IMG/VR virus record: IMGVR_UViG_3300032167_000022
DNA: 25,767 nucleotides
Reading direction: 5' to 3' (one strand)
Origin: a virus
Part shown: one piece after another, positions 11,734 through 25,767 of the stretch
How the letters are laid out: each line of letters begins with the position of its first letter
How positions within the stretch are numbered: position 1 is the stretch's first letter
Notes under the pieces: model-generated
The model's input: the letters and a program-made list of their open reading frames with translations, nothing else
What the model was told of the DNA's origin: nothing
The model's database searches: none
Position numbers and translations under genes: made by a program

Positions 11734-11736
11734 TAG

Positions 11737-12557: not shown

Positions 12558-12589
12558 AATTTTATCTCCTTTTTTTATTTTGTATATAT

Positions 12590-12740: not shown

Positions 12741-12778
12741 AAAAATTTTACAAAAATTTTTACAAAAATTTTACAATT
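12741..12778. repeat. tandem repeat (AAAAATTTTTACA) x3
   Basis: ttttacaaaaatttttacaaaaattttacaa seen directly. Confidence 0.6.
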
Positions 12779-12779
12779 C

Positions 12780-13050: not shown

Positions 13051-13100
13051 CATAATTTGTAAACAAATTATTTTTGTATAAAATAACGAAAAAGAAGTGG

Positions 13101-13512: not shown

Positions 13513-13536
13513 TTTCTTTACCTCCATGAAGGGCGA

Positions 13537-13944: not shown

Positions 13945-13988
13945 TTTATTTTACTCTCTTTCTCCCCCCCTCTCTGGGGGGTACTATT

Positions 13989-14017
13989 ATTATACCATAC
14001 TTTGCGCGATTTGTCAA
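13989..14017 (-). promoter_or_regulatory. promoter cassette TTGACA-17-TGgTATAAT with 5' leader hairpin
   Basis: tgtcaa at 14012-14017 and attata at 13989-13994, then cca. Leader cccccccagagagggggg (reverse complement of 13958-13978). Confidence 0.75.
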
Positions 14018-14023
14018 GGGGTT

Positions 14024-14251
14024 TTATAAAAGTTTTTCAAGTTTTTTTGTGTATGCTTCATAGTTTGCTTCAAGGAACAAATATTCAATACCAAGATACT
14101 GGCACAGAGTAGTCGCTCCAAGCATTCGCTGTTTTGCGTTATCTACGATTTCAAGGGGCGTGTAAAGATTGCGTTCAAGCGCTCTTTCTGCGTCTTTTAC
14201 TTCCTGCTCAAAGTATTCAATCAACTTTTCGCTGATTACAAGTGTATTCAT
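14024..14251 (-). CDS. hypothetical protein
   Basis: SD GGAGGAAT before the ATG at 14251 (MNTLVISEKLIEYFEQEVK...). The track's longer version starts from an alternative start inside the upstream gene. Confidence 0.6.
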   Translation of the reverse strand: MNTLVISEKLIEYFEQEVKDAERALERNLYTPLEIVDNAKQRMLGATTLCQYLGIEYLFLEANYEAYTKKLEKLL

Positions 14252-14252
14252 T

Positions 14253-14450
14253 TTATTTATTCCTCCATGCGTCTTTAGAATGTTCTTCAATGCGTCCATC
14301 TGCGCGATACCATTTAATGTAAGTGAAGTAAGTAGTTTCAAATACAATGCCATCAACCGCAGGAAGGGCAGACTTGATACAGAAATTTTTTCCTTTATGT
14401 ACTTTTACTCTTGCGGTAGCTTCTAAAAGGTCGCTCATCCACATATCCAT
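14253..14450 (-). CDS. hypothetical protein
   Basis: 65 aa ORF, first after the promoter at 14491; RBS AGAAAGAGAG. Confidence 0.55.
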   Translation of the reverse strand: MDMWMSDLLEATARVKVHKGKNFCIKSALPAVDGIVFETTYFTYIKWYRADGRIEEHSKDAWRNK

Positions 14451-14490
14451 TTTATTTGCTCTCTTTCTGTTGGTTCTTTACTGTATATAT

Positions 14491-14519
14491 ATTATATCAT
14501 ATTTTTATAAAAATGTCAA
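14491..14519 (-). promoter_or_regulatory. promoter cassette TTGACA-17-TGaTATAAT
   Basis: tgtcaa at 14514-14519 and attata at 14491-14496, then tca. Confidence 0.7.
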
Positions 14520-14620
14520 TAGATATTCTTGTTTATTTACAAAATGTTCATAATTGCGGGATTTGTGCGGTTTGTACAAAAATGTTAAAAAAATTTCTGA
14601 AAATTTGTATAGATTACCAC

Positions 14621-14657
14621 TTGACAAAATAACGCCCGTGGCCTCCGGTCGCGGGCG
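14621..14657 (-). terminator. rho-independent terminator
   Basis: Hairpin cgcccgtggcctccggtcgcgggcg; the reverse complement is followed by ttattttgtc. Confidence 0.6.
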
Positions 14658-14714
14658 TTTGAACAAATCAAGTATATTTTGTAAATAAATTATGAACACA
14701 GCATTTTCGTCATT

Positions 14715-14751
14715 ATGCACAAAAGAAAATCCCTCTACATCAGTAGAGGGA
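14715..14751 (-). terminator. rho-independent terminator overlapping the stop of the 14735 gene
   Basis: Hairpin atccctctac-atca-gtagagggat; the reverse complement is followed by tttcttttgtg. The TAG stop lies in the stem. Confidence 0.65.
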
Positions 14752-15133
14752 TTGTATAAGTTTTGCGGATGGTAATTTCTACCTGTGGTGGAATTTCATG
14801 GAGAACAAAGCGGTCGTTCCGCACATATTCACCAATTCCCATTTCCTGCCACTTTTGGCGGTTTCTGTCCTCAAAACGCAGAGTATTATATTTTGAAAGG
14901 GGCAGCTTCCATAAATAGGTAAATTTGCCATCTGGCGGCATTGTGTGTTCAGGGCTTTTCCTATAATTGCGCGTGTGCTCTGCCTGTCTGCGCTTTAGGT
15001 CGTTAGTTGTTCCAATCTTTAGAACAAAATTTTTGTCGGTATCGTGGTAAAAACCCACATAAAGAAACTCTTTTTCTGCCATTTTTGCATCTTTTTGACT
15101 AAAATTTAAGTGAAAAGTGGGAAAAATTCCCAC
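14735..15133 (-). CDS. GIY-YIG-like nuclease domain protein
   Basis: EFLYVGFYHD...FVLKIGTTNDLKRRQAEH matches the GIY-YIG core (KIG.T.....RR...H). It ends in TAG; if TAG is sense, a 14-codon extension runs to the next TAA. Confidence 0.7.
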   Translation of the reverse strand: MGIFPTFHLNFSQKDAKMAEKEFLYVGFYHDTDKNFVLKIGTTNDLKRRQAEHTRNYRKSPEHTMPPDGKFTYLWKLPLSKYNTLRFEDRNRQKWQEMGIGEYVRNDRFVLHEIPPQVEITIRKTYTIPLLM

Positions 15134-15139
15134 TTTTCT

Positions 15140-15553
15140 TTACTTTTTGGGCTTTCGCTTCTGAACAAGCGTCAATTCAAAGGCATCTTCACCAATTTTG
15201 AACGCAATTTGCCGTTCTTTGTTGGTAATTTCCACATCTTCGGTCGCAAACTGACTGTTTTTTGTCAAAAACTCCGCCAATTCTGCGATTATTCCGCCCT
15301 TTGTGGGATTTGCCTTGCGCTCACGCTGGGAGAAATTGTAAACAGTAGGCTTGCGGTCGCGGCAGTTAGCCATACGCATCGCTTCCTTCTCTGTCTCCTT
15401 GTCAAGGTCGTACGCCAGCCTGTCATTAGCGGAAGCCTTCTCAACTTCCTTGTCATAGGACAAAACCTCAAGAGCTTCTTCTTCGGTACAGCGCAAGCCC
15501 TCTTGAATTCGCTTGACTTGCGCTTTGTCGGCTCGGGTCAGTTCCATCTTCAT
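15140..15553 (-). CDS. hypothetical protein (module partner B; paralog of 19305..19661)
   Basis: RBS AAAGAGGTG. Its C-terminal half is similar to the 19305 gene product. Confidence 0.75.
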   Translation of the reverse strand: MKMELTRADKAQVKRIQEGLRCTEEEALEVLSYDKEVEKASANDRLAYDLDKETEKEAMRMANCRDRKPTVYNFSQRERKANPTKGGIIAELAEFLTKNSQFATEDVEITNKERQIAFKIGEDAFELTLVQKRKPKK

Positions 15554-15572
15554 CACCTCTTTTGGTTAGGCG

Positions 15573-15594
15573 TGGCAGAGGATTAAACCTCTGC
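15573..15594 (-). other. conserved inter-cistronic RNA hairpin enclosing the stop codon (ggcagagg-tttaa-tcctctgcc)
   Basis: Seen directly. The counterpart at 19679-19700 has a different stem and the same loop. Confidence 0.6.
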
Positions 15595-15981
15595 CAGCTT
15601 GAAGTAGGAAACGCGCTTTTCAATCACCTTTTCCATCTTGCCATCTTCTACCAGCTGACGGACAAGCGCAGTGATTCTCTGCTGGGACAGTCCAGCGCAT
15701 TCGGGAACATTCTTGATGAAGTCAGTAACGGTGTGCTGACCGCCATCATTTGCGAGGTAGTCAAGCATTGCCTGCTTCAGCGCATCGTTTGCTTCCTTCT
15801 TTTCCATCTGCTTGCCAGACGGCTTAGCGTTCTTACGAGCCAGTAGGTCAAGCTCATTTTCAATGAATTCAACGAGCGTGGGGTTAGATGCTACAGAGGG
15901 GATAGCGAGGAGGGCGTTGAAGTGGTCACGCTTGGTGAGCTTCTTTGCGGTAGCGTTGAGAGTAGAATTAGTGTTAGCCAT
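15583..15981 (-). CDS. winged-helix-like DNA-binding protein (paralog family A, member 2)
   Basis: 132 aa ORF; a close paralog of 19693..20082 (for example TVTDFIKNVPECAGLSQQRITALVRQLVEDGKMEKV). Leader ccatggtatcaatcctttcagc is shared. Confidence 0.8.
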   Translation of the reverse strand: MANTNSTLNATAKKLTKRDHFNALLAIPSVASNPTLVEFIENELDLLARKNAKPSGKQMEKKEANDALKQAMLDYLANDGGQHTVTDFIKNVPECAGLSQQRITALVRQLVEDGKMEKVIEKRVSYFKLAEV

Positions 15982-16061
15982 GGTATCAATCCTTTCAGCT
16001 GTTTAGGTTGCCAACCTTTTAATTTGTTTGCCGTGGTAGGTTTCCCTCACCCGGTATATAT

Positions 16062-16090
16062 ATTATACCATACTTTATGGTATTTGTCAA
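16062..16090 (-). promoter_or_regulatory. promoter cassette P1 of a tandem triple (TTGACA-17-TGgTATAAT)
   Basis: tgtcaa at 16085-16090 and attata at 16062-16067, then cca. UP-like ttgaaaaacttttcaaaaacc upstream. Confidence 0.75.
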
Positions 16091-16223
16091 GGGGTTTTTG
16101 AAAAGTTTTTCAAAAATTTTTTGCGATACTATCAAGATTTGAAGTCAATTTATCGCATTTTGGACTTCACTTGATGAGGAGATTTTTTACGAGGTTTTAC
16201 TCACCCTCGCCCCTGACATATAT

Positions 16224-16252
16224 ATTATACCATACTTTGAGCGATTTGTCAA
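16224..16252 (-). promoter_or_regulatory. promoter cassette P2 of the tandem triple
   Basis: tgtcaa at 16247-16252 and attata at 16224-16229. No ORF between it and P1. Confidence 0.75.
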
Positions 16253-16330
16253 GGGGTTTTTGAAAAGTTTTTCAAATTTTTTTGAGTGGCTTTCGGCGTC
16301 CCCGCGCATCCTTTTGTTTGGTACATATAT

Positions 16331-16359
16331 ATTATACCACACAATCACGTTTTTGTCAA
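16331..16359 (-). promoter_or_regulatory. promoter cassette P3 of the tandem triple
   Basis: tgtcaa at 16354-16359 and attata at 16331-16336, then cca. Confidence 0.7.
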
Positions 16360-16632
16360 GAGGTTTTTCAAAATTTCTCAAAAAATTTTTTCAATATCCA
16401 AGAACAAGTCAGATTGTCAATTTTTGGTAATGGTATAATATGTGAACGAGTCTATGTTCATTTGTTAATTTTTTATTACGGGAAAACGGCTAATTCACTT
16501 GATTGTTAATAAAATGTTTACAATTTTTTTATACGATATCTCTTGACAAAATTTCGCCCGTGACCTCCGGCCGCGGGCGACTCAAAAGTCAAGTGTTTTT
16601 TATAAATAATTTGTAAATAAATTATGAATGCC

Positions 16633-16668
16633 AAAAGTAAAAGAAAGAGAGGGGCTTGCGCCCTCTCC
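16633..16668 (-). terminator. rho-independent terminator
   Basis: Hairpin gagaggg-gcttgcg-ccctctc; the reverse complement is followed by tttcttttactttt. Confidence 0.6.
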
Positions 16669-16671
16669 TTA

Positions 16672-16905
16672 TTAAAATTCAAGAATCGGAATATCATCTT
16701 CCGCCGCATACACGCCGATAATTTCTTCACCATTATGAAGTTCACAGCGTGCCAGCAGTCTGTTTGTGATAATTTCTTTTGCTTCGGAATAATCTTCATC
16801 TTCTCCAAAAGTGGTAGGGTCTTTATGGATTTCATGAAGTCTTTCAAAAACTTCTTCATTTACATCCATTTCAATCGTGCGATAAAGTGTAACAGCAACT
16901 TTCAT
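16672..16905 (-). CDS. hypothetical acidic protein
   Basis: 77 aa ORF downstream of the promoter at 16948; TAA stop. Confidence 0.7.
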   Translation of the reverse strand: MKVAVTLYRTIEMDVNEEVFERLHEIHKDPTTFGEDEDYSEAKEIITNRLLARCELHNGEEIIGVYAAEDDIPILEF

Positions 16906-16947
16906 TTTATTTTACCTCTTTCTCCCCCCTTTATTGGGGGTACTATT

Positions 16948-16976
16948 ATTATATCACATTTCTTCGGATTTGTCAA
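16948..16976 (-). promoter_or_regulatory. promoter cassette TTGACA-17-TGaTATAAT with leader hairpin
   Basis: tgtcaa at 16971-16976 and attata at 16948-16953. Leader cccccaataaagggggga. Confidence 0.75.
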
Positions 16977-16982
16977 GGGGTT

Positions 16983-17240
16983 TTACAAAATTTCTACATT
17001 TTCCCACCAATCTATAAGTTTTACTTCTGTATAATAAGTATCCCACGATTCTTTTTTCTTTTTATCCCATTCTTCTTTTGCTTTAATAAATTTTTCCTGC
17101 ATATCTGTTTCGCTGGTGTAAGCACCCGTATAAAAAATTGTCTCTTTTGTCCAGTTGCCACGAGAGCCTTGTCCACCATCAACATAACAAGCGGGAACAT
17201 AAATTTTTGCCATTTTCATTTGCTTTACAATTCTTGTCAT
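16983..17240 (-). CDS. hypothetical protein
   Basis: 85 aa ORF; its stop overlaps the UP region of the next promoter. Confidence 0.7.
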   Translation of the reverse strand: MTRIVKQMKMAKIYVPACYVDGGQGSRGNWTKETIFYTGAYTSETDMQEKFIKAKEEWDKKKKESWDTYYTEVKLIDWWENVEIL

Positions 17241-17287
17241 TTTATTTTACCTCTCTCTTTTAGTGCCCCCTGTATTGGGGTACTATT

Positions 17288-17316
17288 ATTATACCACACT
17301 TTTGCTTATTTGTCAA
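17288..17316 (-). promoter_or_regulatory. promoter cassette TTGACA-17-TGgTATAAT with leader hairpin
   Basis: tgtcaa at 17311-17316 and attata at 17288-17293. Confidence 0.75.
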
Positions 17317-17333
17317 GGGATTTAGTAAAATTT

Positions 17334-17657
17334 TTATTCATTAAAAATATATTTCATTGTTTCATTTACCAAATCTTCATCATCATAAATAAATGCATAA
17401 CCATCTGCTGTACAAGCAAAAATAACTGCTTCATCTGCTTTACAATATGGTTTAACAATTTCATCCAGTAAATCACACAATTTATCAAAAGTTTTTCTAC
17501 GTGTCACAACATCTGTTTCTTTATAATGTTTATTTATATATATTGATTTATCAATAATCTGTTTGAAATCATTATTGTTTGTTTCAATTTTAATGATGCG
17601 ATGTCCAGTATCTTCTTCATCCATTTTACGTTTTGCTAAAATAATACCAAGTTTCAT
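17334..17657 (-). CDS. hypothetical protein
   Basis: 107 aa ORF. Confidence 0.7.
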   Translation of the reverse strand: MKLGIILAKRKMDEEDTGHRIIKIETNNNDFKQIIDKSIYINKHYKETDVVTRRKTFDKLCDLLDEIVKPYCKADEAVIFACTADGYAFIYDDEDLVNETMKYIFNE

Positions 17658-17699
17658 TTTGTTTTATTCCTTTCTATCCCCTGTATCGGGGATGTATAT

Positions 17700-17728
17700 A
17701 TTATACCACACTTTTTTGAATTTGTCAA
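17700..17728 (-). promoter_or_regulatory. promoter cassette TTGACA-17-TGgTATAAT with leader hairpin ccccgatacagggg
   Basis: tgtcaa at 17723-17728 and attata at 17700-17705. Confidence 0.75.
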
Positions 17729-17747
17729 TAGGTTTTGCGAAAGTTTT

Positions 17748-18221
17748 TTAAAGAATTTTTGTTTCGCTCACAAAATACTTTGCTTTGTTGGCTTCAAGCA
17801 GTCCTTTTACAATAAGGCTTTGCGCTTGCGTTTCTGCGTAAATGTTGAAAATGGTATATTTACCAATGTTGGGAATATAATTACAAGAAATTCCATTTTC
17901 TCTTAAGTCATTATAAAGGCTTTCGGTGTAAGGCTCACACACAGATGCTTCAATCTTCCAGAGTTTATCTTTACGCGCCTTTTCCTCTACAAACTTAATA
18001 ATCCATACGCAGATGAAATTTGCGATGGCAGTAATTGCCATATTCACCAAAATGCCTACGGTGCCTTGCGCGGTCAGCATGACAATCAGAGGATAGAAAC
18101 CATAACAAACCGCATTCATCACAGCGGACAGCCATTTACCGCTTTTAATGGTGGTAATGGCGCGGATAGTGGAAAGTGATACGTTAATTACAGTAGCGAT
18201 TGCAAAAATTAAAATATTCAT
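17748..18221 (-). CDS. membrane protein (about 3 TM helices) with C-terminal soluble domain
   Basis: Hydrophobic N-terminal 100 aa (MNILIFAIATVINVSL...ITAIANFICVWIIKF) followed by a polar domain. Confidence 0.75.
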   Translation of the reverse strand: MNILIFAIATVINVSLSTIRAITTIKSGKWLSAVMNAVCYGFYPLIVMLTAQGTVGILVNMAITAIANFICVWIIKFVEEKARKDKLWKIEASVCEPYTESLYNDLRENGISCNYIPNIGKYTIFNIYAETQAQSLIVKGLLEANKAKYFVSETKIL

Positions 18222-18227
18222 TTTTTT

Positions 18228-18464
18228 TTATCCCTCCGATTCAATTACAATGTGCGTTTTTACTGGAGTTATAGGGCTATCTTCATCACAAGCCCACAGT
18301 TGACCAGTTAAAAGCACTACAGCATTAATAGATTCATAATCAAAAGATTCAATATTTTTTATTTTCATATTTAAATCGCCATCACAGTCAATGAAGCATT
18401 CACCGACTTTAATGTCTTTAATTGTTACCTCTTTGTCCTTATTTCTCATGTCCTCAACTCTCAT
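18228..18464 (-). CDS. hypothetical protein
   Basis: 78 aa ORF. Confidence 0.7.
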   Translation of the reverse strand: MRVEDMRNKDKEVTIKDIKVGECFIDCDGDLNMKIKNIESFDYESINAVVLLTGQLWACDEDSPITPVKTHIVIESEG

Positions 18465-18506
18465 TTGTTTTACCTCTTTCTACCCTCTCTCTTGGAGGGT
18501 ATATAT

Positions 18507-18535
18507 ATTATACCACATCCAAGAGAGAAAGTCAA
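18507..18535 (-). promoter_or_regulatory. promoter cassette TTGACT-17-TGgTATAAT with leader hairpin
   Basis: agtcaa at 18530-18535 and attata at 18507-18512. Confidence 0.7.
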
Positions 18536-18554
18536 TGTATAATTTGTATTTATT

Positions 18555-18986
18555 TTATGAATTCTTTTTGAACGGGCACTGCGTTTCGCCTGCGTGGTCT
18601 TTCCACCAGTCTGCAAAATCTTCTGCAGTTAATACTTTCATCAAATCATTAATGGAAAGGTTATTAACTCTTTTACAGACCTTCTTGAAGCTAATAGGCT
18701 TCTTGAAATGCTTTTCATCATAATATTTGCCATAGCTATCCCAATCAGAACCCTGCACACGGATGTAAGGACTGCGCCGGAAAAAGGTATAATTTTCTTT
18801 GATACCGGGGAATCTGTCTACCTCTTCGCGCAGTTCCTCAAACGTGCGGCAGGTCGTGCGGAAAGTATCTTCAAAGGTTTTTGCTTCTTCGGGGGTGAGA
18901 TACTCATAATTGTAATCCCACACAAAAATTTCTTCCCATTCATCATCAAAGCGGACGTAATTCTTAACAGCGTAAATATTTTTCAT
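18555..18986 (-). CDS. hypothetical protein
   Basis: 143 aa ORF. Confidence 0.75.
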   Translation of the reverse strand: MKNIYAVKNYVRFDDEWEEIFVWDYNYEYLTPEEAKTFEDTFRTTCRTFEELREEVDRFPGIKENYTFFRRSPYIRVQGSDWDSYGKYYDEKHFKKPISFKKVCKRVNNLSINDLMKVLTAEDFADWWKDHAGETQCPFKKNS

Positions 18987-19031
18987 TGTTTTATCTCCTT
19001 TGCCTGTTGGCTCTTTGTTTTCTGTATATAT

Positions 19032-19060
19032 ATTATATCATATTATAATAAAAAAGTCAA
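19032..19060 (-). promoter_or_regulatory. promoter cassette TTGACT-17-TGaTATAAT
   Basis: agtcaa at 19055-19060 and attata at 19032-19037. Confidence 0.7.
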
Positions 19061-19162
19061 TAGGTTTTCTTTATTGTTTACAAAATGTTCATAATTGCGG
19101 GATTTGTATGAATTGACTAAAAACGCCCAAAAATTTTCTGAAAATTTGTATACATTACCTAT

Positions 19163-19200
19163 TGACAAAAAAAACGCGCGCCACCATCGGCGACGCGCGT
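19163..19200 (-). terminator. strong rho-independent terminator
   Basis: Hairpin acgcgcgccaccatcggcgacgcgcgt; the reverse complement is followed by ttttttttt. Confidence 0.75.
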
Positions 19201-19249
19201 TTGAACAAATCAAGTATATTTTGTAAACAATTTGTGAACTGGAAATTTT

Positions 19250-19295
19250 CGTCAAAATAAACAAAAATGCATATTACATTTGTAATATGCATTTT
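19250..19295 (-). terminator. rho-independent terminator (16-bp perfect inverted repeat)
   Basis: aaaatgcatattaca-tt-tgtaatatgcatttt; the reverse complement is followed by tgtttattttg. Confidence 0.7.
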
Positions 19296-19304
19296 GGAAA
19301 ATAT

Positions 19305-19661
19305 TTACTTTCGGGGAGCAGATAGAGTCAACTTGAATTTTCTACCATTGTAAAGAAACTCCATTTCACGTTCGGGATTGATAATGGTAAGATTTTCCAC
19401 TTTGTCAAAAATTGCCATTTCAATGCCTTTGATTAGTGCTTGCTTGTCGTTGTCGCTTTTGCGTTCCTTGGTGCTTGCTTTGCCGTATGCGTCAACGACT
19501 TTGCGCGGTGCTCGCCGCAATTCTTTACTTGCGTTCTTTTCTTCGGCGGTCTGCTCAAATAGTTTTTCGCCCTTGTCAATGCGCTTATCTGCGTCCATTA
19601 CGTCGGCGATTTCTTCATCTGTAAAGCCGAGCCGCCGCATTGCTTTTTCCTGTTCGCTCAT
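19305..19661 (-). CDS. hypothetical protein (module partner B; paralog of 15140..15553)
   Basis: 118 aa ORF with RBS GAGGGGGG. Confidence 0.75.
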   Translation of the reverse strand: MSEQEKAMRRLGFTDEEIADVMDADKRIDKGEKLFEQTAEEKNASKELRRAPRKVVDAYGKASTKERKSDNDKQALIKGIEMAIFDKVENLTIINPEREMEFLYNGRKFKLTLSAPRK

Positions 19662-19678
19662 GGATTACGTCCCCCCTC

Positions 19679-19700
19679 TTGGGGGAGGGGGATTAAACCC
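19679..19700 (-). other. conserved inter-cistronic RNA hairpin enclosing the stop codon (ggaggggg-tttaa-tccccctcc)
   Basis: Seen directly; a structural homolog of 15573-15594. Confidence 0.6.
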
Positions 19701-20082
19701 CCTCCGGAATGCGGAAGTAAGATACGCGCTTTACGATTACCTTTTCAAGCTTGCCATCTTCTACCATCTGGCGAACCAGTGCGGTAATCTTCTGCGGAGA
19801 AAGTCCAGCGCACGCAGGCACGTTCTTGATGAAGTCGGTAACAGTGTGCTGTTCGCCGCTCGCGGTTGCGAATTCAAGAATCGCCGCCTTAAGCCCCTGA
19901 TTTGCGATGTCCTTTTCAGTGAGCTTCTTGTTGTCGCTGTTGTTCTTGCGAGCCAGCAGGTCAAGTTCGTTGTTGATGAAATCAACGAGTGCGGGATTTG
20001 CGGCAACTTCGGGGAGCTGGAGCAGGGTGTTGAAGTGGTCGCGCTTAGTGAGCTTCTTGGAAGTAGAGTTAGTAGTAGCCAT
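19693..20082 (-). CDS. winged-helix-like DNA-binding protein (paralog family A, member 3)
   Basis: 129 aa ORF, highly similar to 15583..15981. Confidence 0.8.
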   Translation of the reverse strand: MATTNSTSKKLTKRDHFNTLLQLPEVAANPALVDFINNELDLLARKNNSDNKKLTEKDIANQGLKAAILEFATASGEQHTVTDFIKNVPACAGLSPQKITALVRQMVEDGKLEKVIVKRVSYFRIPEGV

Positions 20083-20166
20083 GGTATCAATCCTTTCAGC
20101 GTAGGTCGCTACCCATTATTTTTATTTTACCGATTGGAGGTCGTGCCCTCTTGCTTCGGTATATAT

Positions 20167-20195
20167 ATTATATCATACTTTGAGCGATTTGTCAA
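20167..20195 (-). promoter_or_regulatory. promoter cassette TTGACA-17-TGaTATAAT
   Basis: tgtcaa at 20190-20195 and attata at 20167-20172. Confidence 0.75.
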
Positions 20196-20226
20196 GGGGT
20201 TTTGCAAAAGTTTTTGAAAAATTTTT

Positions 20227-20333
20227 TGGAGGCAGTGGTAGGAGTTGAACCTACGTTTTCCAATGGCGAACGTTTCCATTTGTTGTATCTCAAGCCATCT
20301 TTATGGAAATAGAGCCGCTTCTATCTCACTGCC
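20227..20333 (-). tRNA. tRNA-like element, atypical length (104 nt plus encoded CCA)
   Basis: The minus strand reads GGCAGTG...atag-aagcggct-ctat...gtagg-TTCAACT-cctac-CACTGCC-t-CCA. It has a 7-bp acceptor stem, a D-arm with GG, and a canonical T-arm and loop. The anticodon region carries about 16 extra nt (a 23-nt loop between tccat and atgga), and no clean anticodon was identified. Confidence 0.4.
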
Positions 20334-20373
20334 ATATTATCGGGGAGGATTTGTTCCTCTCTTCTGTATATAT

Positions 20374-20402
20374 ATTATATCATACTTTTGCGGTTTTGTC
20401 AA
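20374..20402 (-). promoter_or_regulatory. promoter cassette TTGACA-17-TGaTATAAT driving the tRNA-like element
   Basis: tgtcaa at 20397-20402 and attata at 20374-20379. The tRNA-like 5' end lies about 35 nt downstream of the predicted transcription start. Confidence 0.75.
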
Positions 20403-20451
20403 GGGGTTTTGCGAAATTTCTTAAAGTTTTTTTTGCGGTAGTCATGGGGGA

Positions 20452-21156
20452 TTAATTCCCCCATAACTCTTTCTGCATTGCCTTGTGTTGTCTGAAACAG
20501 TACGCCATTATCTGCGCTTCAATTTCCACATCTTCAAGCCCTGTATGATTTTCAACAAAATCATTATTGCGGGAAATGAATCTGTAAAGATTTTCCGCTG
20601 TCATGGAAAGTCTGCCAGTTTTTGTCAGATAACCATGTTCTTCACAAAATGCGCGGTAGGTGGGCATCTTTCCGATTACACTTTGCGCCATCTTCATACT
20701 GTCCCAAATTGTAATTCCATAAGGGAGAAAATAGCGGTACTTGCTTTTTGTAGTCCAGCGCTCTGTGCTGTTTAGGCTGTTGTAGTCAAAACGGGCGTTA
20801 TGCGCGCAAATTGTATCAACTGCGAAATCTGCGATATCATTCAGCAGAGCCGAGCGCATTTGATAGGTATTAGCCACAATGCGCCTACCCGCTTCAATGT
20901 CTGCGAGATACTGCGGGATTTTATTTGCGTAGTATGCCGACTTCATCAGTTCAGCTTCATGGAAGAAAATATCAGAATTTACAAAACTCTTTTTGCGGTA
21001 GATGTTTCCATGCTTATCAGTTACCGCCCACCCAAGGTCATACACAAGTGTACTACTTGTGTCAAGCTGTCCTCTTTCATCGCGGAAGGTGTTTGCGGTT
21101 TCCGTGTCAAGCACGATAATGTAATGTCTGCGGCGGTCAATCTTTTCTGTGTTCAT
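20452..21156 (-). CDS. DEDDh-family 3'-5' exonuclease (DnaQ/epsilon-like)
   Basis: Exo I YIIVLDTETAN, Exo II CAHNARFDYNSL, Exo III HTGLEDVEIEAQIM. 234 aa. The TAA stop sits in the loop of hairpin atggggg-attaatt-cccccat. Confidence 0.8.
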   Translation of the reverse strand: MNTEKIDRRRHYIIVLDTETANTFRDERGQLDTSSTLVYDLGWAVTDKHGNIYRKKSFVNSDIFFHEAELMKSAYYANKIPQYLADIEAGRRIVANTYQMRSALLNDIADFAVDTICAHNARFDYNSLNSTERWTTKSKYRYFLPYGITIWDSMKMAQSVIGKMPTYRAFCEEHGYLTKTGRLSMTAENLYRFISRNNDFVENHTGLEDVEIEAQIMAYCFRQHKAMQKELWGN

Positions 21157-21198
21157 TGGTCTATCTCTCTTTCTACCCCCTGTATCGGGGGTATATAT

Positions 21199-21227
21199 AT
21201 TATATCATACTTTGAGCGATTTGTCAA
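21199..21227 (-). promoter_or_regulatory. promoter cassette TTGACA-17-TGaTATAAT with leader hairpin cccccgatacaggggg
   Basis: tgtcaa at 21222-21227 and attata at 21199-21204. Confidence 0.75.
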
Positions 21228-21256
21228 GGGGTTTTGCGAAAGTTTTTTAAAGATTT

Positions 21257-21460
21257 TTAGCGGGGGAAAAAGCAAGCACTTCTGTCATTCCATACTACTA
21301 TGTATTTGTCGCCATTGACTTCTTCTACTCTGTGAAGGGTGGCTTCGTAGAAACCGCATTCCATGAGCGCGTTATACTCATCACGGGCATCATTGAAATT
21401 ATTGAATTGGGTTACTACGCCCTCAATTTCTACCTCAAAATAAATTTTAGTGTTAGTCAT
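21257..21460 (-). CDS. hypothetical protein
   Basis: The true start is the ATG at 21460 (RBS AGAGAGG; MTNTKIYFEVEIEG...). The track's longer version translates the promoter. Confidence 0.65.
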   Translation of the reverse strand: MTNTKIYFEVEIEGVVTQFNNFNDARDEYNALMECGFYEATLHRVEEVNGDKYIVVWNDRSACFFPR

Positions 21461-21494
21461 TTGTGATGTACCTCTCTTTCTTTTCTGTATATAT

Positions 21495-21523
21495 ATTATA
21501 CCACATATCAAGCCAAAAGTCAA
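21495..21523 (-). promoter_or_regulatory. promoter cassette TTGACT-17-TGgTATAAT
   Basis: agtcaa at 21518-21523 and attata at 21495-21500. Confidence 0.7.
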
Positions 21524-21632
21524 TAGGTTTTTGAAAAAAATCTTTCGTCAAATTGCACAAACATTTTGGGAAAATTTCCCTTCACAATTTGTTTACAAAA
21601 TGCTTACAAAAAAGTATTGAAATTCACAATTT

Positions 21633-21670
21633 GTTCAAAAACCGGCCGCTTGGAGCGCGGGCGGCCGGCC
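21633..21670 (-). terminator. rho-independent terminator
   Basis: Hairpin ccggccgc-ttggagcgcgg-gcggccgg; the reverse complement is followed by tttttg. Confidence 0.6.
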
Positions 21671-21767
21671 CAAAAGTCAAGTCAAAATTTGTAAATAAAA
21701 TGAAAACAAAATATGAATTGAAATGAAAAAATGAATCCAAAAAATGGAAACAAAAATTGAAATTGAA

Positions 21768-21796
21768 ATAAAAAACCGCCCAAAGGCGGCTTTTAT
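21768..21796. terminator. bidirectional rho-independent terminator
   Basis: aaaaaaccgcccaaaggcggctttta. Confidence 0.75.
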
Positions 21797-22069
21797 TTAA
21801 TAGGTGATACGAATATTATTCAATCTATCTGTATATGATTCTGGACCATCTTCTTCAAACAGTCTTGTTCCGTTAGCAACTCTTCCACGTTGAACGCAGA
21901 AGAAAATACCATCTTTTCTTGCCCGAGAAATTAAATCATTAAATTCTTCCATATAATTATCGCGTGTAATTTCTTTTTTTCTTCTTTCAATGATAAGTTT
22001 AAGCTCTTCGGCGGTGACTTCCATCAGAACAACATTCTCTTCAACTTCATTAAATCTACCAGTAGGCAT
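21797..22069 (-). CDS. hypothetical protein
   Basis: 90 aa ORF. Confidence 0.7.
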   Translation of the reverse strand: MPTGRFNEVEENVVLMEVTAEELKLIIERRKKEITRDNYMEEFNDLISRARKDGIFFCVQRGRVANGTRLFEEDGPESYTDRLNNIRITY

Positions 22070-22124
22070 TTTGTTTTCTCTCTTTCTTCCGTTCTTTTGG
22101 GCTTCCGGATTTCCTCTGTATATA

Positions 22125-22153
22125 TATTATATCATACTTTGCGGTGTTTGTCA
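22125..22153 (-). promoter_or_regulatory. promoter cassette TTGACA-17-TGaTATAAT
   Basis: tgtcaa at 22148-22153 and attata at 22125-22130. Leader cttccgttcttttgggcttccggatttcc is shared with the promoter at 24362. Confidence 0.75.
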
Positions 22154-22186
22154 AGAGGTTTTGCGAAATTTTTTGAAAAAAATTTT

Positions 22187-22378
22187 TTATGCCAAGAATT
22201 CACCAGTTTGAATATAATGCCAGATAGCTTCTATGCAAGTATGCTCAAAATCATCTATGCGTTTTTCATCATGGCATTTATCATTTAATGGACATTCTTC
22301 ACATTTAAAAATTGGGATATCAATAGATTTTGGGTCAATAATTGCTTGAAAACGTTTAAACTGAATATTTTCTTCCAT
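22187..22378 (-). CDS. small CxxC protein
   Basis: 63 aa with RBS AGGAAAG; contains CEECPLNDKCHDEKRIDDFEHTC. Confidence 0.55.
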   Translation of the reverse strand: MEENIQFKRFQAIIDPKSIDIPIFKCEECPLNDKCHDEKRIDDFEHTCIEAIWHYIQTGEFLA

Positions 22379-22395
22379 GCTATTTCTTTCCTGTA

Positions 22396-22893
22396 TTAAA
22401 ACTTTTTTGAATTTACCTGTATGCGCTCAATCCAAGAGCGCATACAGTAATTCAAGAATATCAATCGCGGTCGGGTCAAACGCTTCGCCCATGTGCCAGC
22501 CCTTGCGAACCTTTTCATTGTCATCAAAGAGCAAGCGGTTTCGTCCTCTTCAAGGTATCTGCGGATGCTGTCAGCCTTAGTCGCGCCATACTTTACACCG
22601 TGGAAGTGAGTGTAAGGAATGCCGAGGGCTTCAAGCCATTCTCGCTTCGCTTCGCGTACCGCTTCATCATACTCGGGAGTGCTTTCCTTTGACAGCCAAG
22701 TGATAATGCGAATTTCAACGCCGTTATCAATCAGCGTATTCAGGATGCAAGCAAGCTCCTCTTCATCCCACATACATTCTGCTTCCCGATACGGGGCAGG
22801 GTCAAACGCACGAAGCTGTTCAAGCCAGTTGGGCACGTTGTAAAGGTCTGCGAGGGTGCCGTCCATGTCAAAGCAAATCATCTTAGGTAACAT
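22396..22893 (-). pseudogene. HAD-superfamily 5'(3')-deoxyribonucleotidase-like gene with apparent -1 frameshift near 22540-22560
   Basis: The start is MLPKMICFDMDGTLADLYNVPNWLEQL (HAD motif I, DxDGT). After ...RRYLEED, the homologous continuation RNRLLFDDNEKVRKGWHMGEAFDP (motif IV, DD) is in another frame, which is closed by a TGA just upstream. The track's M at 22971 translates the promoter. Confidence 0.55.
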
Positions 22894-22942
22894 AGTTTTT
22901 ACTTCCTTTCTCTTGGAACCTCTTGGGTTCCTCTGTATATAT

Positions 22943-22971
22943 ATTATATCACATTTCCGGTCGTTTGTCAA
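22943..22971 (-). promoter_or_regulatory. promoter cassette TTGACA-17-TGaTATAAT
   Basis: tgtcaa at 22966-22971 and attata at 22943-22948. Confidence 0.75.
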
Positions 22972-23015
22972 GAGGTTTTGCGAAATTTTTTAAATTTTTT
23001 TTCGCAAGGTAGAGG

Positions 23016-23192
23016 TCACTTGACCTCTACCACATCCACGATTTCCCATTCTTTGGCAGGATAATCGGTCTCGTTATCAAGGCGATACATACATTCTTTC
23101 TTCGCTTCACCTTTATTACTCGCTTTAACGAAGTATTCATCCCATCCAAATTTCTTGTGATAAACAGAGCAAGCATAAGTTTTCATCTCCAT
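23016..23192 (-). CDS. small hypothetical protein (58 aa)
   Basis: RBS AAAGAAAGGA. Reads MEMKTYACSVYHKKFGWDEYFVKASNKGEAKKECMYRLDNETDYPAKEWEIVDVVEVK; TGA stop inside the palindrome ggtagaggtca-ct-tgacctctacc. Confidence 0.45.
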   Translation of the reverse strand: MEMKTYACSVYHKKFGWDEYFVKASNKGEAKKECMYRLDNETDYPAKEWEIVDVVEVK

Positions 23193-23238
23193 GTGTCCTT
23201 TCTTTGGTCGCCTATTGGCTTTCCTTTACTGTATATAT

Positions 23239-23267
23239 ATTATATCATATTTTAATAAAAATGTCAA
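23239..23267 (-). promoter_or_regulatory. promoter cassette TTGACA-17-TGaTATAAT
   Basis: tgtcaa at 23262-23267 and attata at 23239-23244. Confidence 0.7.
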
Positions 23268-23384
23268 TGAATATTCTGTAAATAGATTGTGAAGTTTCTG
23301 TGAACTGGCCTATTGGTAGTTTCAGGAAATGGGAAACATATGCGAATTATCCAGTTTTTGCCATAAAAAATGCGGAATTAGGTG

Positions 23385-23435
23385 GCCATTAGAAATACCG
23401 CTCGTTTCGGGTGGTAAACGCCCGGAAACGAGCGG
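23385..23435 (-). terminator. rho-independent terminator (11-bp stem)
   Basis: ccgctcgtttc...gaaacgagcgg; the reverse complement is followed by tatttctaat. Confidence 0.55.
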
Positions 23436-23454
23436 GCGCCCACAATTGTAAATT

Positions 23455-23545
23455 TTTTAAAAAAATTTTATGAACAAATTGTGAACAAAATATGAACAAA
23501 AATGTATGAACAAATTGTGAACAGAATATGAACAAATTGTTACCA
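23455..23545. repeat. six tandem copies of (T)ATGAACAAA(T)
   Basis: tatgaacaaattgtgaacaaaatatgaacaaaaatgtatgaacaaattgtgaacagaatatgaacaaattg. Confidence 0.65.
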
Positions 23546-23591
23546 AAGCGGCTGGATATTTTTTCCACCCAGCCGCTTTATTTTACATCTG

Positions 23592-23957
23592 TCACATAGG
23601 GATTCTATCAACCGCATCCGCCTGCGCGATTGCTTTTTCAATCAGTGTATCAAGCGCTTTTTCAATTCTCGCAAGCTCTGCTTTGTTCTTGACTATATAA
23701 TGGTCATTCCCTTTACGTTCAACATCAAAGTTGTTTTCAAGAATCAAATGCGCGTTAGCCTCAATTACTCTGCGATATGCGATATTATCGTCGCACTCCC
23801 AATTTTTCATGATTAGGTCTTTGTCTCTGTAAAATACCTCTCTTGCTCTTCGGATAACGTTATTTGTTTCGCCGATTTTAATGACGTAGGTGCCGCGCTT
23901 TTTTTCTTGTAAAGCAAGCACCGTTTTTTCGTTCATCGCATAGTAAACACAGCTCAT
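23592..23957 (-). CDS. GIY-YIG-like nuclease domain protein
   Basis: VYYAM...GTYVIKIGETNNVIRRAREV fits the GIY/YIG plus Arg pattern. 121 aa, TGA stop. Confidence 0.65.
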   Translation of the reverse strand: MSCVYYAMNEKTVLALQEKKRGTYVIKIGETNNVIRRAREVFYRDKDLIMKNWECDDNIAYRRVIEANAHLILENNFDVERKGNDHYIVKNKAELARIEKALDTLIEKAIAQADAVDRIPM

Positions 23958-24003
23958 TTTATTTTACCTCTTTCTTTATTTTTTGTTGGAGTCAATCCCC
24001 GCT

Positions 24004-24123
24004 TTACGCGGGGATTTTTCTGACCAGCTTGCCGTGCTTCATTTCTTCCACCTTAAGCTCGCGCTTGCTGAATCCCTTCACTGCTGTTCTGTAGCCGTCT
24101 GCGAAAATAAACCACCAAAACAT
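24004..24123 (-). CDS. small hydrophobic/basic protein (39 aa)
   Basis: SD AAGGGGGAT. Reads MFWWFIFADGYRTAVKGFSKRELKVEEMKHGKLVRKIPA; its TAA sits in the loop of hairpin atccccgc-tttac-gcggggat. Confidence 0.4.
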   Translation of the reverse strand: MFWWFIFADGYRTAVKGFSKRELKVEEMKHGKLVRKIPA

Positions 24124-24143
24124 CTTTTTTATCCCCCTTTTAT

Positions 24144-24303
24144 TATTCGTGTTCAGCTCTGTCAACGTACTTAACAACTTCAACGGGTACGTCACACATA
24201 ATTGCGATTTCTTCAATGCCGTACAAGTAAACATCGCCGACGCATTCATCAAGCAGGTTTGCAATTTCTACATACTTTTCAAAAGTGATGCTTTCAATAG
24301 TCA
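24144..24303 (-). CDS. small hypothetical protein (53 aa)
   Basis: The ATG at 24303 follows leader ...agagagattaaaaaa. Reads MTIESITFEKYVEIANLLDECVGDVYLYGIEEIAIMCDVPVEVVKYVDRAEHE. Confidence 0.55.
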
Positions 24304-24361
24304 TTTTTTTAATCTCTCTTTCTTCCGTTCTTTGTGGCTTCCGGATTTCCTTTACTGTATC

Positions 24362-24390
24362 TATTATACCACACAATTGCGATTCTGTCA
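24362..24390 (-). promoter_or_regulatory. promoter cassette TTGACA-17-TGgTATAAT
   Basis: tgtcaa at 24385-24390 and attata at 24362-24367. Confidence 0.7.
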
Positions 24391-24508
24391 AGGGGGTTTT
24401 TGAAATTTCTTTAAAAAAAATGTATTTTGTACGTTTTGCACAAAAATGTATAAATATTCATTTTTGTATAATTTGACTAAAAATGTATATTATACATTTT
24501 TGTGCAAT

Positions 24509-24538
24509 TTGACGAACGAACATTTGTTCGCGTATAGT
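24509..24538 (+). promoter_or_regulatory. plus-strand promoter TTGACG-18-TATAGT with a perfect Firmicutes LexA (Cheo) box CGAACATTTGTTCG in the spacer
   Basis: ttgacg at 24509-24514, cgaacatttgttcg at 24517-24530, tatagt at 24533-24538. Confidence 0.5.
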
Positions 24539-24696
24539 TTTGCGATTTTCTGCTTTTACCATTTTCTTCCAGCACTTACAAATTTTCCCATTTACCAGAA
24601 AATGGTAAAAAGACCGTTAAATTCTTAACAAGCGCATCCAGTTTCTTCCATTACCAAATGGTGGATGAATTTCCAAAATTTACCGGGTAGGGAAAA

Positions 24697-24960
24697 CGCG
24701 AAAACTGTTTTTTCCAAAAACTGGAATTTCGTGAAAATTTTAACAATCGCGCGGCCGCCCCTTATTTTAACACTTTATCACTTTACCATACTAAAGCGCG
24801 ACTTCGGGGCCCCGCGACACTTGTCGTACAAAACGGAAGGCTGGCATTGTGAAATTTTTCACAAACACGAAAATCGTCAAAAAACTGTTTTTCACTTTCA
24901 CGCTTTACCATACTAAAGTGTGTGAAATTTTTAACAATCGGCGGGCCGCAGGGGAGAGGG
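24697..24960. repeat. two diverged direct repeats (aaaactgtttttc..., ctttaccatactaaag, gtgaaatttttaacaatcg-GC hairpin)
   Basis: Shared blocks at 24697-24770 and 24870-24960, seen directly. Confidence 0.5.
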
Positions 24961-25270
24961 TTTGTTAACAAAAAATTTACAATTTAAAAATTTACAATTT
25001 GTTTACATTCGGGAGAATTTGTTCACAATTTATTTACAATTTATTTAAAAAAAAATATTGAAATTCACAGTTTGTTCACAAATTCGGGCCCTGGGGCCCG
25101 AGAACAGAGATAATTGTGAACAAATTGTAAATTTTTTGTTAACAATTCATAAATTGTTAACAAAAAATTTACAATTTGTTCACAATTTGTTCACATTCGG
25201 GAAATAAAAAGTTTACAATTTGTTCACAATTTGTTTACAAAAAATTCACAAATTGTTCACAATTTGTGAA
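24960..25270. repeat. dense array (more than 20 copies) of an 11-12-bp repeat ACAATTTGTTCACA / TTGTGAACAA with three TCACAttCGGG punctuations
   Basis: Examples: tttacaatttgtttacattcggg, aatttgttcacaatttatttacaattt, aattgtgaacaaattgtaaat, tttacaatttgttcacaatttgttcacattcggg, ttcacaaattgttcacaatttgtgaac. Confidence 0.7.
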
Positions 25271-25399
25271 CTCCGGCCGCTTGGAACGCGAGCGGCCGGC
25301 TCAAAATCAAGCATATTTTGTAAATAATTTGTAAATTAAAAATGAATTTTTTGTAAACAATTTATGAATTTTTTATTCATAGAAATTTTACAATTTGTT

Positions 25400-25442
25400 C
25401 ATAAATTAAAAATGGTAAATGCTGGAATTACCAGCATTTACC
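25400..25442 (-). terminator. rho-independent terminator with the stop codon in the loop (12-bp stem)
   Basis: ggtaaatgctgg-aatta-ccagcatttacc; the reverse complement is followed by atttttaatttat. Confidence 0.7.
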
Positions 25443-25634
25443 AATCTTTGCGATTAATTTTTTTTGGTAATCTCTACCATGCGCAAACACCCACTTGCTT
25501 TTGATTTTGTGATTTGTTTCATTATAAATATTAGTGCTTCTGATTGCGCTCTCAAGCCATCTGACATTGTTTGCCATAAGCACTTCACCAGTAGTAAGAT
25601 TGTAAGCGGCATGCGGTCTGTTGTTAGTAGTCAT
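25428..25634 (-). CDS. hypothetical protein
   Basis: The true start is the ATG at 25634 (RBS GGAAGT; MTTNNRPHAAYNLTTGEVL...). The track's longer form translates the promoter. Confidence 0.6.
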   Translation of the reverse strand: MTTNNRPHAAYNLTTGEVLMANNVRWLESAIRSTNIYNETNHKIKSKWVFAHGRDYQKKLIAKIGKCW

Positions 25635-25680
25635 TTTATTTACTTCCTTTCTGTGAGGGTTTCTCCCTCTCTCTGTATAT

Positions 25681-25709
25681 ATTATACCACACTTTTGGTT
25701 TTTTGTCAA
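25681..25709 (-). promoter_or_regulatory. promoter cassette TTGACA-17-TGgTATAAT
   Basis: tgtcaa at 25704-25709 and attata at 25681-25686. Confidence 0.7.
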
Positions 25710-25726
25710 TAGGTTTTTGAAAAGTT

Positions 25727-25764
<38 letters not shown>

Positions 25765-25767
25765 TGT

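Follow-up and report, generated by a model that had tools for sequence, protein, structure and literature searches.

The window analysed here is a stretch of 25,767 nt of viral DNA, IMG/VR record IMGVR_UViG_3300032167_000022, and its minus strand holds, from position 20333 to position 20227, the gene of a tRNA-shaped RNA. As read from the sequence, this RNA gene has a length of 107 nt including an encoded UCCA end, and of 104 nt up to the discriminator, which is the length given in an initial annotation of the locus. The first part of the RNA reads, from 5′ to 3′, GGCAGUG AG AUAG AAGCGGCU CUAU U UCCA UAAAG AUGGC UUGAGAUACAACAAAUGGAAACGUUC, and it continues with GCCAU UGGA AAAC GUAGG UUCAACU CCUAC CACUGCC U CCA. 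All tRNA features that the initial annotation had listed, i.e. a 7-bp acceptor stem, a discriminator, an encoded CCA, a D arm with GG, and a canonical T arm, can be seen. The 5′ strand of the acceptor stem, GGCAGUG (20327..20333), forms a perfect 7-bp helix with CACUGCC (20231-20237), which is followed by the discriminator U and the CCA. The D arm (20309..20324) consists of the stem AUAG/CUAU and a loop that contains G18 and G19, and the T arm (20238..20254) has the stem GUAGG/CCUAC and the loop UUCAACU. Position 8 is an A, not a U.

The remainder is an extended “anticodon arm” (20259..20307). From base to tip, it is composed of a helix H1 (UCCA with a distal UGGA, enclosing 41 nt), a 5-nt bulge UAAAG on the 5′ side, a second helix H2 (AUGGC/GCCAU) stacked on H1, and an apical core. 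Among the features that define membership in the tRNA family, the 7-bp acceptor stem, the D arm with G18 and G19, and the T loop U54-U55-C56-R57-A58 are thus present, and the stems covary (see below). In contrast, the 5-bp anticodon stem with its 7-nt loop (U33, anticodon, purine 37) is missing, and a 41-nt insertion is found instead.

The initial annotation had proposed to check the locus with tRNA finders and covariance models, and the results are divided. ARAGORN found no tRNA in the window, and it never called the element with the default, intron, tmRNA, mitochondrial, or lowered-threshold settings, which yielded only noise, and a search of the whole window against Rfam at gathering thresholds did not report a match. 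In contrast, when only the 400-nt region 20100-20500 was searched, the tRNA family RF00005 matched over its full model length with 29.4 bits (gathering score 29, E = 2.9e-4), and the alignment places 41 nt at the site of the central nine positions of the anticodon arm. No other Rfam family overlaps the element at E ≤ 10 in this region. The score with our own model of the element, R1, is 140.8 bits. RNAfold predicts a cloverleaf with an extended arm (z-score −2.4). Of 200 dinucleotide-shuffled versions of the window, one contained the combination of acceptor stem, T arm, and NCCA (mean 0.005), whereas acceptor stem plus T arm without the CCA requirement are common in the AT-rich shuffles (mean 1.1).

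Upstream of the gene lies a sigma-70 promoter (20374..20402, minus strand) with the structure TTGACA-17-TATAAT and a TG extended −10 region, which reached 12/12 in a consensus scan. Its TATAAT ends 40 nt ahead of the first G of the RNA, and therefore a leader of ~33 nt (20334..20367) is predicted, with a hairpin GAGGA-ACAAA-UCCUC and an AUAU directly before that G. We infer from these signals that transcription starts, and RNase P cleaves, at this leader; the motif A-N-A-U precedes the 5′ end of the RNA in three lineages of the alignment described below. The initial annotation had regarded transcription as certain on the grounds that the element has a consensus promoter of its own. The promoter is present, but it is one of >16-30 near-identical promoters in the window, and we regard the element as almost certainly transcribed, as judged from the sequence; transcription would be strong and early in infection.

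Promoter, leader, RNA gene, and an AT-rich tail form a cassette of 207 bp (20196..20402, minus strand). Its boundaries are two direct repeats (20153-20229 and 20360-20436; 81% identity, 207 nt spacing) that consist of promoter-region sequence. The cassette is wholly absent in relatives with 88% protein identity (L089, L091, and L092), in which the hairpin of the exonuclease gene is followed by a single promoter and then by the gene for a protein of 129 amino acids. The promoter repeats together with the cassette-free relatives indicate an accessory cassette that can be gained or lost by recombination between promoter copies. A second 12/12 promoter (20167..20195, minus strand) drives the downstream 129-amino-acid gene (19693-20082), and this promoter and its leader are also present in the cassette-free relatives. 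No terminator was found in the window ahead of the promoter and gene that follow the element, so that read-through into the 129-amino-acid gene is likely. A paralogous pair of genes of ~130 amino acids (15583-16002 and 19693-20115; 76-81% nucleotide identity, weak match to Mnd1-HTH) is present in the window, one copy being located directly downstream of the cassette.

Covariation in four phage lineages

Homologues of the element were found in four lineages, termed G1 to G4. G1 is the phage of the window. Its flanking gene for an exonuclease-like protein of 234 amino acids is identical on at least 23 metagenome contigs from different samples, and the seven of these loci that were read all have the same element (100% identity). 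G2 comprises L126/L174 (a 190.9-kb IMG/VR contig) and L358; its copies are promoter-driven, and in L126 the element is located 9.4 kb upstream of the exonuclease gene. G3, also referred to as lineage 3, comprises ~18 IMG/VR contigs of 33-158 kb, most of them 134-158 kb, with nearly identical copies that lie within a tRNA cluster, on the same strand as and between tRNA-Thr and tRNA-Phe. G4 is represented by L356, a divergent copy with its start 6 nt past a stop codon and a terminator downstream of it. Open reading frame (ORF)-level BLAST of the sampled regions showed that early genes are common to G1, G2, and G4, and that none is in common with lineage 3. Despite these common early genes, the position of the element differs among G1, G2, and G4.

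The secondary structure was tested with a model-based alignment (A6) that included the acceptor stem, the D stem, the helices H1, H2, H3, P4, and P5, and the T stem. A total of 96.4% of the cells pair, compared to 42-49% when the partners are slid by 1-3 columns, and changes on both sides occur in 16 of the 34 pairs; none of 500 shuffles equalled these values. All seven pairs of the acceptor stem are 100% paired in every lineage, with double compensatory changes in four of them. In the D stem, all cells are paired and three of the four pairs have changes on both sides, and in the T stem, 97.8% of the cells are paired and three of the five pairs show double changes. H1 has one compensatory pair. 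H2 is 100% paired with double changes in three pairs, other lineages having AAAGC/GCUUU and UCGGC/GCCGA at this site. Acceptor, D, and T stems as well as two helices of the extended anticodon arm therefore all covary, and RNAalifold independently yielded the same architecture. The initial annotation had made its tRNA-like reading dependent on the conservation of the acceptor and T-arm pairings in homologous phages, and they are indeed kept and covary in all four lineages. It had also assumed a different anticodon arm, with a 23-nt loop between tccat and atgga. This pairing is present in only 71% of the cells, has no compensatory change, and its fifth pair exists only in the window; we rejected it because the covariation supports UCCA with the distal UGGA, i.e. 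H1, stacked on H2.

The covariation across four lineages is decisive for regarding the element as more than a chance assembly, and on the basis of these comparisons its structure is firmly supported. Some tRNA-like details vary. The discriminator is a U in most copies, the T loop has the sequence UUCRA, and the CCA end is not encoded in every copy.

The module that stands in the place of the anticodon loop extends from H2 to H2′ (20263..20298, minus strand) and has a length of 36-45 nt in the different lineages. It consists of a covarying helix of 5-6 bp, two invariant strands, and a variable hairpin between them. Nine distinct sequences from the four lineages were compared to assess the invariance of the core. 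Strand 1, UGAGAUACAA (20283..20292, minus strand), which contains AGAUA and thus the pattern AG..A, and strand 2, UGGAAACGUUCGC (20266..20278, minus strand), which contains UGGAA and thus the pattern UG..A, are identical in all nine. Together, they form an invariant core of 23 nt that is unchanged although the surrounding H2 and P4 covary. P4 is the covarying hairpin between the strands and has a UCGC loop; the window copy lacks this hairpin and has CAAA in its place. Conservation within the molecule is highest in the insert and exceeds that of the tRNA body. A model of the module alone (R2) scores 44.6 bits in the window and 72-73 bits in the other lineages, and a search of ~2 Mb of related phage DNA with R2 revealed no copy outside the tRNA-like elements.

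In contrast to the core, the bulge of 5-7 nt, an apparent remnant of the anticodon loop, has drifted between the lineages. Its sequence is A-U-AAA-G in the window, A-C-AAA-G in L126, A-U-GAA-G in L356, and A-U-UUA-A-C (7 nt) in lineage 3, so that the triplet of the remnant is AAA in the window and in L126/L358, GAA in L356, and UUA in lineage 3. Taken together, the alignment of the lineages shows that a tRNA body is under selection and that its decoding end was swapped for a module with a 23-nt invariant core.

Alternative explanations and possible function

The initial annotation had reported a TAG-recoding signal in the window, and it had regarded the element as the obvious candidate for a suppressor tRNA. 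The signal was corroborated. Homology runs across in-frame TAGs in four genes on the minus strand (906-1709, 7951-8226, 8457-8798, and 8791-9258) and in one region on the plus strand (10902-11183), and a helix-turn-helix (HTH)-like gene on the plus strand (~9990-10685) is interrupted by 10 or more in-frame TAGs within 240 codons. The residues aligned to in-frame TAGs are T, T, S, G/S, and Q. The block of early genes (12000-25767) contains no in-frame TAG. In some of its genes, the phage thus reads TAG as a sense codon. A relative (L169) encodes an ordinary tRNA of 71 nt with a CUA anticodon (14458-14528, minus strand), which is labelled “Pyl” by ARAGORN.

That the element itself decodes TAG in its present form is a possibility to which we assign next to no weight. 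The recoding is real, the early promoter would be active when a suppressor is needed, and a scan for N-U-CUA-R-N hairpins, which recovers the L169 suppressor, found none in the window, L002, and L361 (~52 kb of the ~91-kb phage genome); a further ~1.15 kb reached via the relative L363 also did not contain a tRNA(CUA). However, the scan covered about half of the genome, the cassette is missing in the 88%-identical relatives, and L169 makes use of an ordinary tRNA(CUA). No loop of the anticodon arm contains CUA, UUA, or UCA, there is no 7-nt loop, the remnant triplet is not conserved, and the only CUA of the element is part of the D stem. From the established structure of the ribosome, an arm that is ~40 nt longer than normal would not be expected to fit the decoding site. 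The suppressor idea is therefore excluded because of the anatomy of the element, and not because the true suppressor has been located. The initial annotation had also considered an intron-containing, split, or permuted tRNA. The module would then be a small intron near position 37/38 that is cut out by a nuclease of phage or host, the ends being resealed by an RNA ligase, which would leave a decoding tRNA with the ochre-type anticodon UUA in lineage 3 and GAA or AAA elsewhere. It does interrupt the apparent old anticodon loop directly after a U-NNN-purine string, the lineage-3 copy is part of a tRNA cluster that adjoins genes of healing-and-sealing enzymes (RNA ligase, PNK-like kinase, and RlaP), and the window phage has a weak PNKP-like phosphatase. 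Nevertheless, we judge an intron to be improbable. The 3′ strand is free of bulges through H3, H2, and H1, so that a bulge-helix-bulge is missing, and a group I signature is also missing (group I introns comprise at least 200 nt, compared to 36-45 nt of the insert). The intron mode of ARAGORN was negative. After excision, the D stem would be separated from the T stem by 18 nt, compared to ~22-23 nt in a canonical tRNA, which is not enough to accommodate a 5-bp stem, a 7-nt loop, nucleotide 26, and a variable loop. In addition, L126 and L358 have a C at the would-be position 33, the “anticodon” varies among copies with an otherwise identical body, and the insert is better conserved than the exons.

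A role in cis, as “tRNA punctuation” at which RNase P or RNase Z would cut read-through transcripts or as a signal that protects an mRNA, without a function in trans, has a similarly low probability. The likely read-through into the 129-amino-acid gene is compatible with such a signal, as is the L356 copy, which is located 6 nt after a stop codon and precedes a terminator and thus forms the 3′ end of an mRNA; many transcripts of the window phage also start with conserved hairpins. However, punctuation requires only an acceptor stem and a T arm, which leaves the 23 invariant nucleotides and the covarying H2 and P4 unexplained. Furthermore, the element is a unit of a tRNA array in lineage 3, and the downstream gene in the window has a full promoter and is expressed in relatives without the cassette. 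A decaying tRNA pseudogene with a functionless junk insertion could account for the A at position 8, for the degenerate D arm and the A.C mismatch in the T stem of L356, for the CCA end that is not encoded everywhere, and for the dispensability of the cassette in close relatives. This explanation is strongly disfavoured, as every stem is maintained by compensatory changes in four lineages, the supposed junk is the most conserved part, a consensus promoter is in front, and the copies are identical in the seven loci read and nearly identical in the ~18 contigs of lineage 3.

Several further readings were tried and rejected. A protein-coding frame (ATG GCA GTG AGA TAG..., ~50 codons if TAG is a sense codon) has no Shine-Dalgarno motif at the right distance, runs into a TAA after 11 codons in lineage 3, and lacks the ATG in L356; moreover, the substitutions are compensatory in stems and not synonymous. 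An antisense target of the apical region was not found, as the rest of the window does not contain its complement. For the core, known motifs and ribozymes such as the hammerhead and the k-turn were dismissed because the consensus nucleotides do not fit by eye, and there is no Rfam overlap at E ≤ 10.

On balance, the element is probably a free-standing gene whose product is a small non-decoding RNA derived from a tRNA, with a mature length of ~104-107 nt, i.e. a tRNA mimic with a specific binding module. It would be unable to read codons because its anticodon loop is replaced by the 36-45-nt module. The initial annotation was right in that the gene is tRNA-derived and has a non-canonical anticodon region, and its last alternative, a tRNA-like regulatory RNA, comes closest to the evidence. 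The RNA family appears to be undescribed, but it falls within a known kind, the tRNA-like non-coding RNAs of phages.

RNase P and RNase Z (or exonucleases) would excise the RNA from its transcript, and the CCA-adding enzyme would complete those copies in which CCA is not encoded. A stable tRNA-shaped RNA would then accumulate that is unable to enter the decoding site. Its tRNA body would supply processing, stability, and recognition by tRNA-binding partners, and the invariant module would bind one specific partner. The RNA might thus act as a decoy or an adaptor for a tRNA-targeting or tRNA-binding factor in a tRNA-centred conflict between phage and host. Three observations, described below, led us to propose this role: the early-promoter cassettes of relatives, which encode tRNA-Lys or other unusual tRNA-like RNAs in this part of the genome, the genes for RNA ligase, RlaP, and a PNK-like kinase that adjoin the tRNA cluster of lineage 3, and the YrlA-like RNA and the PNKP-like phosphatase in the phage of the window.

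Several points weigh against the proposal of a tRNA mimic with a specific binding module. The tRNA core is imperfect, with an A at position 8 in three lineages and, in L356, degeneration of the D arm and an A.C mismatch within the T stem, so that tight tRNA mimicry may not be essential. No gene co-occurs with the element in all lineages, as far as ORF-level BLAST of the sampled regions is concerned. The suppressor that the phage needs was not found in the ~52 kb read. The number of independent lineages is four, and H3 (GAG/UUC), P5, and the whole core are devoid of covariation information, so that any fold proposed for them is tentative.

For the core, RNAalifold offers a hairpin of H3 with a UG-GAAA-CG tetraloop. 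A more specific idea, which we put forward tentatively and consider rather unlikely, is that the two invariant strands form an interdigitated double T-loop on the anticodon arm of a tRNA scaffold, which would dock to tRNA elbows in a conflict about tRNA cleavage and repair. Double T-loop modules have a core of six nucleotides, AG..A and UG..A (PMC3664808, PMC4810234). The order published for these modules (PMC3664808) is found in the element, i.e. A-G-N-N-A is located 5′ of U-G-N-N-A, and both are invariant. With such a module, the RNA might capture host or phage tRNAs, or might self-assemble from elbow to tip, as a counter-measure of the phage. Known examples, i.e. RNase P (J11/12-P12-J12/13), the distal end of T-box Stem I, and the L1 stalk of 23S rRNA, have the six of six core residues and their order in common with the element, and the setting of the element is tRNA-related throughout, which is a further likeness. 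The invariant strands lie on either side of a variable, dispensable hairpin, and the arrangement of J11/12 and J12/13 around P12 in RNase P is similar; we treat this comparison as a lead only.

As for differences, known double T-loop modules conserve 6 nt, whereas all 23 nt are invariant in the element, and for the element the assignment is a match to a 6-nt pattern, for which we estimated a chance of ~1-5% within the invariant blocks. The candidate stacking platforms are U:G and A:(C/U/A), i.e. Y:R or R:Y and not purine:purine. The described platforms are mostly R:R, with R:Y and Y:R in some classes (Table 1 of PMC3664808). In addition, the tetraloop hairpin with H3 is an equally compatible fold. 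If the idea were true, the element would represent a fourth natural class of RNAs that dock to tRNA elbows, the first that is itself tRNA-shaped, and the first case of a double T-loop on a tRNA scaffold. A tectoRNA-like dimer, with the GAAA tetraloop and a bulge resembling the 11-nt receptor ~10 bp apart, was also considered; since lineage 3 does not conserve the bulge, this geometry was retained as no more than a lead.

Comparison with known RNAs

The closest analogue is the species 1 RNA of phage T4 (rnaC), which is not homologous. T4 rnaC and rnaD (species 2) are small stable RNAs of the T4 tRNA cluster, a setting resembling that of the element in lineage 3, and in the 3′ ~93 nt of rnaC, as in the element, a long insertion separates an acceptor stem from a T arm. 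However, the two RNAs are not collinear. R1 scores 17 bits with rnaC, limited to the columns of the acceptor stem and the T arm, and rnaC has an extra 5′ domain that the element lacks. The words UUGAGAUA and ACGUUCG occur in both RNAs, but they are probably shared by chance because their order is opposite and their structural places differ. The hosts also differ: T4 infects E. coli, and the phages with the element are gut phages whose nearest cultured relatives grow on Enterococcus.

The likeness to canonical tRNAs (RF00005) extends to the acceptor stem, the D arm with GG, the T arm with UUCRA, the discriminator, the CCA, and, in one lineage, the site within a tRNA array. In contrast, the element does not have the 5-bp stem with a 7-nt loop or a conserved anticodon, and it has A8 in three lineages. 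YrlA RNAs (RF02553) are likewise non-coding tRNA mimics with a T arm, a D arm, and an acceptor-like stem, and they are linked to loci of RNA repair or quality control. The ends of YrlA are located in a long stem at the anticodon position and its acceptor is closed by a loop, whereas the ends of the element form the acceptor stem, and RF02553 had no match in 20100-20500 at E ≤ 10. The element differs from tmRNA in that it has neither a pseudoknot nor a reading frame for a tag, a length of 107 nt is too short, and the tmRNA mode of ARAGORN was negative. In the tRNA-miRNA-encoded RNAs (TMERs) of murine herpesvirus 68 (MHV68), the tRNA-like structures of plant viruses, and tmRNA, the tRNA shape borrows processing, CCA addition, and stability from the host for a function other than decoding; they differ from the element in hosts, topologies, and sizes. 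The literature searched does not contain a description of a phage tRNA-like RNA with such an insertion, and no such family was found in Rfam.

The element joins other RNAs of this sort from phage tRNA regions, i.e. T4 species 1 and 2, skipping-rope, and YrlA-like RNAs; ROOL and GOLLD are further conserved RNAs of such regions. It is a compact and well-defined addition, a tRNA body with its decoding end exchanged for a 23-nt invariant core. In abundant gut phages, it is encoded on a mobile promoter cassette in what would be the early region for host takeover; in another phage group, it adjoins tRNA-repair genes. With ~105 nt, the RNA is small enough for direct biochemistry and structure determination and could serve as a testable entry to the handling of host tRNAs by phages. 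It also follows that the suppressor of this TAG-recoded phage has to be sought elsewhere, and that labelling the element a suppressor or a pseudo-tRNA would be wrong.

Genomic surroundings

Promoter-driven cassettes in the early region of relatives encode tRNA-Lys in L017, L141, and L165. Non-canonical tRNA-like RNAs are found in L017, L043, and L073, where they are promoter-driven, and in L030, where a promoter directly upstream is missing; ARAGORN does not call these non-canonical RNAs. The tRNA-Lys and tRNA-like genes are located at 925-987, 1221-1296, and 3817-3913 of L017, 150-222 of L073, ~4500-4612 of L043, 851-927 of L030, 7262-7337 of L141, and 12524-12598 of L165. One of the tRNA-like RNAs has 97 nt and ends with ACCA; its “anticodon loop” comprises 16 nt, and its variable arm is long.

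In lineage 3, the tRNA cluster is headed, upstream of the element, by a skipping-rope RNA (RF02924, 77.9 bits; L321 196-275). Several tRNAs of this cluster are of unusual length, with 85 nt for Thr, 92 nt for Phe, and 90 nt for Ile. Downstream (L321 3945-8637), genes for a class-V aminotransferase, an RNA ligase (PF09414 with a PHA02142 OB domain), RlaP, and a PNK-like AAA_33 kinase were found, which together make up an RNA-repair module.

The phage of the window encodes a YrlA-like RNA ~4.5 kb beyond window position 1 (L361 18398-18505), and a further copy is present in a relative (L363 393-500). The matches are below the threshold (RF02553, 34.5 and 35.9 bits compared to the gathering score of 69, E ~5e-5). 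The RNA has the permuted tRNA-like order of a T arm, a closed acceptor-like hairpin, and a D arm, is located next to the tRNA genes of the phage, and is conserved in the relative. The tRNA region of the same phage (L361 19304-21575) contains tRNA-Leu(UAG), tRNA-Leu(CAA), and tRNA-Lys(UUU), and in addition a tRNA-like gene of 65 nt (20930-20994) with an acceptor stem of only 4 bp. The anticodon loop of this gene is CAGCAAC or CUUGAAA in close relatives, and it is followed by an ORF with a weak match to the ribosome-rescue factor ArfA.

The near-identical sigma-70 promoters with an extended −10 region, of which more than 30 were noted, are located on the minus strand of the window and occur in two flavours. 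The first is GC-richer, is associated with CCCTTGACAAA, and precedes small early genes; the second is AT-rich and lies ahead of genes at 0.9-12.6 kb. Examples of minus-strand promoters are 13989-14017, 16062-16090, 16224-16252, 20167-20195, 21199-21227, and 22126-22154, and further ones are found at 856-913, 2281-2338, 3910-3967, 5620-5677, 7321-7378, 9698-9755, and 12569-12626. For many of the promoters, the transcript begins with a conserved G/C hairpin such as CCCCC-N6-GGGGG. The many strong promoters ahead of small genes are reminiscent of the region for host takeover in SPO1-like phages. Among cultured phages, Enterococcus phages of ~140 kb have the nearest relatives of the exonuclease gene, with 40% identity.

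Two repetitive features of the window were also observed. Iteron-like arrays of TTCACAATTTGT / TTTACAAAAAA with 11-nt spacing occupy ORF-free stretches at 21580-21780, 23440-23550, and 24950-25410, and could represent a replication origin or an array of regulator-binding sites. The plus strand is strongly G-rich at 11540-11900, with low-complexity repeats of the TAGGTAGTAAGTAATAG type, and this stretch adjoins a divergent gene block (9750-11540) that is oriented opposite to the rest of the window.

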